Positions 16,293-16,510 of a DNA stretch of 64,000 nucleotides are shown piece by piece. A program made the position numbers and the translations under genes. The notes under the pieces were generated by a model that saw only the letters and a list, made by a program, of their open reading frames with translations, had not been told where the DNA came from and ran no database searches. The stretch lies in the NCBI RefSeq assembly GCF_003334785.1, contig NZ_QOWV01000007.1. One strand, written 5' to 3'. Every line of letters starts with the position of its first letter. Positions within the stretch are counted from its first letter, which is position 1. This DNA is from Escherichia coli. GTDB taxonomy: Bacteria; Pseudomonadota; Gammaproteobacteria; Enterobacterales; Enterobacteriaceae.

Positions 16293-16299
16293 CATTTGT

Positions 16300-16510
16300 C
16301 TGATGCCGCACGTAGGCCTGATAAGACGCGGACAGCGTCGCATCAGGCATCTTGTGCAAATGTCGGATGCGGCGTGAACGCCTTATCCGACCTACAAAAA
16401 CAAATTTATCAATGAGTTAGAAATCCCTTTAGGCCTGATAAGACGCGCCAGCGTCGCATCAGGCATCGTGTGCGAATGTCGGATGCGGCGAAAACGCCTT
16501 ATCTGACCTA
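16300..16510. repeat. REP/BIME cluster (several palindromic units)
   Basis: Repeated GCCTGATAAGACGCG...CGTCGCATCAGGC and GTCGGATGCGGCG...CGCCTTATCCGACCTAC palindromic units read directly between yacG and mutT; yields spurious ORFs in the track. Confidence 0.85.

Follow-up and report, generated by a model that had tools for sequence, protein, structure and literature searches.

What fills the 215 bp that separate the convergent genes yacG and mutT of Escherichia coli, and does it end the two transcripts that run into it or act on them in some other way? We addressed this question in a 64,000-nt stretch of E. coli DNA, referred to below as the window, in which positions 15941-17041 are the exact reverse complement of E. 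coli K-12 MG1655 110900-112000 (window position p corresponds to MG1655 127941−p). Measured from stop to stop, the spacer runs from window 16293 to 16507, i.e., MG1655 111434-111648, with yacG on the plus strand and mutT on the minus strand converging on it; the transcription units that face each other across it are coaE-zapD-yacG and secA-mutT. Our best explanation, which taken as a whole we consider probable, is that the spacer is a BIME-2 cluster situated in the 3' untranslated regions (UTRs) of both transcripts, where it would not terminate them and could act as a barrier to exonucleases. The features concerned are as follows.

16095-16292, plus strand: yacG, DNA gyrase inhibitor (open reading frame list and RefSeq annotation)
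16293-16311, no strand: leader, 19 nt (inverted repeats)
16312-16349, plus strand: z2-type REP 1, with GTAG at 16312-16315 and a stem with an internal 2x2 mismatch (Rfam naRNA4 alignment)
16350-16360, no strand: S-type short linker of pair 1, 11 nt, TCTTGTGCAAA
16361-16395, minus strand: y-type REP 2, inverted, with CTAC on the plus strand at 16392-16395 (Rfam alignment)
16396-16428, no strand: linker between the pairs, 33 nt
16429-16465, plus strand: z2-type REP 3, tetranucleotide TTAG
16466-16476, no strand: S-type short linker of pair 2, 11 nt, TCGTGTGCGAA
16477-16511, minus strand: y-type REP 4, inverted, whose GTAG on the minus strand holds the mutT stop
16508-16897, minus strand: mutT, 8-oxo-dGTP diphosphatase, 129 aa here and 132 aa if the REP GTAG is mutated (open reading frame list and RefSeq)
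16563-16715, plus strand: region downstream of the cluster in yacG-direction RNA (composition and Adams et al. 2021)

The layout, the direct repeat within it, and alignment to the Rfam naRNA4 model confirm the reading of the initial annotation that REP palindromes alternate in orientation between convergent yacG and mutT. The spacer contains four of them, arranged as two tandem z2–S–y pairs that repeat directly at a spacing of 116-117 bp, with a 64-nt stretch 92% identical and an 18-nt stretch 100% identical. REPs proper occupy approximately 145 nt of the spacer, the remainder being linkers and leader; the claim that REP palindromes make up the whole spacer thus stands if the linkers are counted within a mosaic element, and fails for the REPs proper. 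The end of the element, formerly placed at 16507, belongs at 16511, where it overlaps the mutT stop codon. Within the leader, the stretch TGTCTGATGC (16297-16306) resembles the 5' half of a degenerate inverted z-type REP; the leader is mostly kept in the sampled E. coli alleles, with the variants TATCTGATGC in one and TGTCTGATGT in another, and is identical in Escherichia sp. E4742.

By definition, REPs carry a conserved GTAG 5' of the foot of the stem (PMC3333891), and this GTAG has been reported to be needed by TnpA-REP. They are imperfect palindromes of 30-40 nt whose stem is interrupted by a mismatch. The four units here measure 35-38 nt, each with a mismatch between its lower and upper stems, and GTAG is present in three of the four; the exception is REP 3 (16429-16432), which has TTAG in K-12 and GTAG in one other allele (locus L011). 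The sequence is dispersed in high copy, as a 701-bp query matched 4-35 places per E. coli genome (median, 17) by megablast, and it is extragenic except for its last 4 nt (16508-16511), which lie within mutT. In BIME-2 elements, as defined, z2 and y REPs point in opposite directions across a short S linker, the unit recurs in tandem between variable flanking linkers, and copy number differs among strains (PMC3333891). At yacG–mutT we found the y/z2 alignment, 11-nt linkers, tandem copies, and a strain-variable number of pairs; the z2 label rests on the labels Y and Z2 given to REP325 by Qian et al., with the z1 versus z2 consensus unchecked. Classification of the REP family by alignment, the check proposed at the outset, also came out in favor: both pairs match Rfam RF02564 (naRNA4) over its full length on the minus strand, scoring 78.4 and 77.8 bits (E ~1e-14) against a gathering score of 59.5 bits, in what is in practice a generic model of the y-REP/linker/z2-REP pair. 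Altogether, the yacG–mutT element is almost certainly a BIME-2 REP cluster, an ordinary array of textbook pairs of a known kind in the best-studied bacterial genome.

Catalogues of the REPs and BIMEs of E. coli K-12 go back decades, one published count giving 355 annotated elements and another 584 REPs (PMC3333891), so that one more such cluster matters little. The MG1655 record NC_000913.3 contains no repeat_region feature anywhere, REP325 and the araD-araA array included, and the absence of a repeat annotation at yacG–mutT is therefore uninformative. Our search for literature on mutT or yacG together with REP returned nothing relevant, and the RepRanger supplement has no entry for either gene.

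The extensive secondary structure that had been anticipated was borne out on both strands. Folding energies of the individual hairpins range from −13.1 to −21.9 kcal/mol (z-scores, −3.4 to −6.6): REP 1 at −21.8 kcal/mol (z = −6.6), REP 2 at −19.2 / −18.8 kcal/mol, and REP 3 at −21.9 kcal/mol, with REP 4, which adjoins the mutT stop, the weakest of the four in K-12 at −13.1 kcal/mol. A 250-nt region folds at −99.6 kcal/mol on the plus strand (z = −6.6) and −100 kcal/mol on the minus strand (z = −5.9), and none of 200 shuffles folded as well.

Repeat sequence of this kind also accounts for several mechanically called open reading frames (ORFs), namely 16098-16343 and 16156-16359 on the minus strand and 16243-16377 and 16470-16736 on the plus strand, which start or end in REP or linker sequence; those at 16098-16343, 16156-16359, and 16470-16736 run antisense through yacG or mutT. 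ORFs that start in REP hairpins are spurious. None was annotated in any of six RefSeq records, and their antisense position and their starts in REPs or S linkers agree with the earlier suggestion that they are artefacts of the cluster, although the ORF then given as 16098-16359 merged two minus-strand ORFs in different frames, 16098-16343 and 16156-16359.

The boundary with mutT shows that a supposedly extragenic repeat provides the stop codon of this gene and, in many strains, its last three codons. On the mutT-sense strand the gene ends …CGT CTG TAG|GTCAGATAAGG, with the TAG stop (16510-16508) inside the GTAG of REP 4 and the stem beginning 0 nt after it. In O157:H7, GN05056, E28, and STEC299 (loci L003-L006), the tetranucleotide is GTAT or GTAC; the mutT frame then runs three codons further (…VYVG or …VYVE) to a stop formed by the TAA or TAG of the conserved GATAAG of the REP, inside the hairpin arm. 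RefSeq MutT lengths follow suit, at 129 aa in K-12-like strains versus 132 aa in O157, GN05056, E28, and STEC299, the longer form arising because the GTAG that holds the stop is mutated to GTAT or GTAC. According to Liang, Rudd & Deutscher 2015, as relayed in PMC12306157, REPs within 15 nt of a stop codon lower translation. By that relayed rule, mutT has its REP at the closest possible distance, 0 nt, while yacG falls outside it because its stop (TGA, 16290-16292) is 23 nt from the first REP stem in the hairpin fold. The REP-borne mutT stop with its 129/132-aa polymorphism, together with the position of an IHF-like core described below, is the only mildly unexpected point that we found. That REP alleles, through pair number, GTAG state, and the linker with the IHF-like core, might tune the dosage or activity of the MutT antimutator, and hence A:T-to-C:G rates, strikes us as highly improbable; if true, allele differences would contribute to lineage-specific A:T-to-C:G mutation rates in E. 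coli. As a separate observation at this gene, E. coli DTU-1 (NZ_CP026612.1) gave a split match with IS1A beneath it and mutT listed twice, and IS1 appears to interrupt mutT in this laboratory strain.

The initial annotation had also cast the cluster as a likely terminating element for both convergent units, a claim that our evidence does not support. None of the four hairpins is followed by a U-tract, and a terminator consensus scan of 16293-16512 on both strands found no site; the hairpin plus U-tract that makes an intrinsic (Rho-independent) terminator is thus missing from the cluster. Nor did published 3'-end mapping, the other check proposed, place a 3' end at the palindromes. In the curated Term-seq 3' ends of Adams et al. 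2021 (PMC7815308), covering three growth conditions, neither mutT nor yacG appears as an entry name, and none of the coordinates fits the pattern 1113xx, 1115xx, or 1116xx; under the 50-bp rule of that study, ends at 111400-111483 would carry the mutT label, so that only at 111484-111499 could an end not be excluded. These missing ends are weak negative evidence because the study used uniquely mapped reads and mutT and yacG are weakly expressed. The same work does list a Rho-dependent termination region at MG1655 111226(-), equivalent to window 16715 (Rho score 5.3, p = 1.3e-14; ±bicyclomycin DirectRNA-seq, Adams et al. 2021, Supplementary file 2), which lies approximately 200 nt past the cluster on the yacG-direction strand, inside antisense mutT. 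The downstream region that leads to it contains a C-rich, G-poor tract at 16563-16662 with a C/G ratio of 2.1-2.5. For the mutT-direction strand, no Rho region is listed between MG1655 107527 and 114530 (Adams et al. 2021).

It is unlikely, on this evidence, that the palindromes themselves form a bidirectional terminator for yacG and mutT. Their location between convergent genes would fit that reading, an association of BIMEs with attenuation of transcription has been described (Espeli et al. 2001, as cited in PMC6061677), and an Atlantibacter-type genome has in the same spacer a canonical hairpin with a flanking A-run and T-rich tail; against this, U-tracts are absent and the scan finds no terminator-like site, Term-seq 3' ends are not listed in the spacer, and the signal of Rho-dependent readthrough peaks approximately 200 nt downstream, at 111226(-). 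Annotation of the hairpins as a terminator should be avoided. A different role, with which the pattern seen here agrees, is offered by the model of Dar & Sorek 2018 (PMC6061677), in which Rho terminates transcription downstream and stable hairpins without a U-tract, some of them REPs, block 3'→5' exonucleases; the hairpins that stop the exonucleases define the steady-state 3' end. The same model also comes from Peters et al., as credited in Dar & Sorek 2018 (PMC6061677).

Applied to this locus, that model would have both convergent transcripts carry the REP cluster in their 3' UTRs, with hairpins that do not act as terminators themselves and instead present barriers to 3'-to-5' exonucleases once termination has occurred further downstream. 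RNA in the yacG direction would be terminated by Rho approximately 200 nt past the cluster, within antisense mutT, and on the mutT side the REP provides the stop codon, with a stem beginning directly after it. Repeats of this type do not code for protein and are substrates of the REP-associated tyrosine transposase (TnpA-REP, yafM in K-12). By analogy with these published hairpins, a transcript-stabilising role is plausible, and for an exonuclease barrier at yacG–mutT in particular we see the chances as evenly balanced; presence/absence polymorphism, which weighs against such a barrier, fits a largely neutral element. The missing Term-seq ends, the lack of a listed Rho region for mutT-direction RNA, and the weak fold of REP 4 beside the mutT stop also count against it.

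That polymorphism is considerable, and the variable number of pairs is one useful correction. The yacG–mutT region was matched in all 5,426 complete E. coli genomes. The K-12-type two-pair junction was found in 1,868 of these (34%) and an E28-type two-pair junction in 236 (4%), leaving approximately 61% with neither type; an evenly spaced sample of genomes without a two-pair junction mostly had one pair, the spacer then being 87-99 bp long. Among the one-pair alleles, those from O8:H8 and O157 are similar to that of K-12, and the one from GN05056 is similar to that of E28, which suggests, from allele sequences, that a pair may have been lost or gained more than once in E. coli. The K-12-type junction also occurs at up to 3 places in some genomes, which may reflect more than two pairs or a duplicated locus.

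Beyond E. coli, the spacer holds one pair in Escherichia sp. E4742, a single REP-like palindrome in Escherichia sp. ESNIH1, and a degenerate REP plus a y-type REP in Citrobacter freundii. REPs are missing from the spacer of the Atlantibacter-type genome, which has the hairpin with A-run and T-rich tail noted above, from the 25-nt spacer of Kosakonia, and from Yokenella, where the two genes share a 4-nt overlap. The gene next to yacG in Salmonella is one of the LysR family rather than mutT, and it overlaps the yacG stop by 4 nt. REP occupancy of the spacer is therefore confined to the Escherichia–Citrobacter neighbourhood and variable in detail, and REPs are not needed for the convergent yacG–mutT organisation. 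Two side observations concern the surroundings of yacG in these comparisons. In one Salmonella enterica genome (locus L008, 2778-3192), an IS605-family OrfB/TnpB gene lies two genes from yacG, and several YacG-like proteins among the close E. coli-type matches are 74-93 aa long rather than the usual 63-65 aa (P0002-P0005, P0011, P0023, and P0050), which may be start-codon miscalls or readthrough variants.

The linker between the two pairs has a feature of its own. At 16407-16419, 11 nt from CTAC, it carries TATCAATGAGTTA, which fits the IHF consensus core WATCAANNNNTTR exactly. A single match of this kind is not significant alone because the window contains 5 such matches versus 2.1 expected, and for that reason the argument for IHF rests on conserved position instead of the match itself. 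The two-pair allele of E28/STEC299 has a strongly diverged linker that keeps TATCAACGTGTTA at the same 11-nt offset from CTAC; between the two divergent linkers, the positions specified by the IHF core are kept in 9 of 9 cases, compared with 10 of 24 for the others (hypergeometric P = 0.002, calculated post hoc). The REP pair between yaaX and yaaA, which we take to be an annotated IHF-binding RIP, likewise has an IHF-like core in its linker of 35 nt, at a distance of 12 nt from CTAC. For mutT and yacG, the supplement of Kasho 2021 has no entry. Judged from its sequence, the inter-pair junction has BIME-1-like geometry with a putative IHF core. A BIME-1/RIP would comprise y and z1 REPs, an L linker with an IHF site, and a single copy; at yacG–mutT the REPs are z2 and the unit is tandem, and the locus might count as an "atypical BIME" under the scheme of PMC3333891. 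Since they are absent from most E. coli, we infer that neither the second pair nor the linker with the IHF-like core is required.

How far the cluster does anything at all at this site is a separate matter, and it is quite possible, though we lean against it, that it is selfish or neutral repeat DNA without a selected function whose effects on RNA or DNA are incidental. Pair number varies, approximately 61% of genomes being without either two-pair junction and the sampled ones having one pair; one-pair alleles seem to have arisen two or more times, out of different two-pair backgrounds; several related genera have no REPs in the same spacer; and TnpA-REP cleaves and recombines BIMEs in vitro (PMC3333891), which provides a route to changes in copy number. 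Yet none of the E. coli alleles examined is without a pair, Escherichia sp. E4742 also carries one, and Citrobacter freundii has a REP pair; mutT has come to rely on a REP for its stop codon; and the specified positions of the IHF core are kept between divergent linkers (9/9 versus 10/24 others). An RNA-level function of another kind, in which each pair gives rise to an naRNA4-like, HU-binding nucleoid-associated RNA or serves as a cruciform partner of such RNAs, seems to us very doubtful. The Rfam matches exceed the gathering score on the mutT-sense strand, and a two-hairpin RNA (Y and Z2) is required for HU-dependent condensation (Qian et al. 2015); nonetheless, the model is effectively that of a generic y/z2 pair and also matches the araD-araA array in the window, published work demonstrates the function only for REP325 RNAs, and most E. 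coli hold a single pair at yacG–mutT.

The presence of a gene for a gyrase inhibitor beside the cluster prompted the idea of a BIME-2 gyrase site that absorbs positive supercoils between the two convergent units. BIME-2 elements are enriched for gyrase cleavage, chiefly in y REPs (PMC6379681), and the convergent geometry would suit such a site, as would YacG itself. The link to yacG is probably a coincidence, however, as Yokenella and Kosakonia have yacG-mutT neighbours without REPs. W3110 and MG1655 presumably share coordinates around yacG–mutT, and Topo-Seq coordinates should agree with those of MG1655 because the Mu SGS insert lies at dcuC–crcA. The Topo-Seq table (Sutormin et al.) has no gyrase cleavage site at MG1655 111434-111648, nor in any of its columns between 111320 and 112062, the table not stating how repeat reads were handled, and only a subset of BIME-2 elements is cleaved according to the authors (PMC6379681). 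The idea was set aside for want of a cleavage site at the locus, and we regard it as quite improbable. Unlike the yacG–mutT cluster, window ~12118-12137 (MG1655 115804-115823) shows a dense run of gyrase cleavage in Topo-Seq, and another such run lies at MG1655 129999-130021, just beyond the window. Altogether, a non-terminating BIME-2 cluster that may shield both 3' UTRs from exonucleases is the reading that we prefer.

Other elements of the window bear comparison with the cluster. A Hamming scan located further REP loci. At 55720-55805, between yabI and thiQ, a y REP and a z2 REP meet end to end, CTAC towards GTAG, with a 14-nt linker between them, a junction of the same kind as the 33-nt linker at yacG–mutT, but short. 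At 61108-61546, between araD and araA, a REP array with an 85-bp period comprises at least 5 y-like/z2 pairs and gives four Rfam naRNA4 matches at 60.2 bits, just over the gathering score. On the minus strand at 16912-16981, covering the 3' end of secA and the secA-mutT spacer, there is a match to Rfam STnc40, a Salmonella sRNA, at 84 bits versus a gathering score of 45. Within this match lies the palindrome AAAAGGCGCAGAATCCTGCGCCTTTT at ~16915-16940 with A and T runs on either side, whose sequence suggests a bidirectional intrinsic terminator or attenuator a short way upstream of mutT; our scan for terminators omitted it, probably because the A and T runs pair together. The other Rfam matches above gathering were tp2 (window 4927-5040), PssrA (22628-22717), the leucine operon leader (44218-44367), SgrS (50347-50573), and the TPP riboswitch (52330-52429).

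Among known systems, the closest in architecture is the REP325 array between yjdN and yjdM, the source of RF02564, which is likewise made of tandem units of a y REP, an ~11-nt linker, and an inverted z2 REP. REP325 has six units, whereas yacG–mutT has two; its between-unit linker is 17 nt and its period 100, compared with 33 nt and 116-117 here; and it lies between co-directional genes, while the yacG–mutT cluster lies between convergent ones. With the RIP-type BIME-1 of yaaX-yaaA, the cluster shares a y REP that faces a z REP over a linker of ~33-35 nt and an IHF-like core 11-12 nt from the CTAC of the y REP. It differs in that its linker is unrelated outside the core and sits between two BIME-2 pairs; its junction is single-copy by megablast (median, 1 place per genome, versus a median of 2 for the yaaX-yaaA junction), in a comparison too insensitive to assign the linker to the L family. 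By position, the mutT end resembles the stop-proximal REPs of Liang et al. 2015, as described in PMC12306157: in K-12 its stop is inside a REP with the stem at 0 nt, and in other mutT alleles the stop lies inside the stem. The yacG end, 23 nt from the nearest stem, does not resemble them. Finally, like REPs that stabilise mRNAs or form hairpins at 3' ends, those at yacG–mutT would be stable 3' UTR hairpins without a U-tract, with Rho termination downstream. The cluster differs from these in that published Term-seq calls no 3' ends at it and that it is common to two convergent mRNAs.
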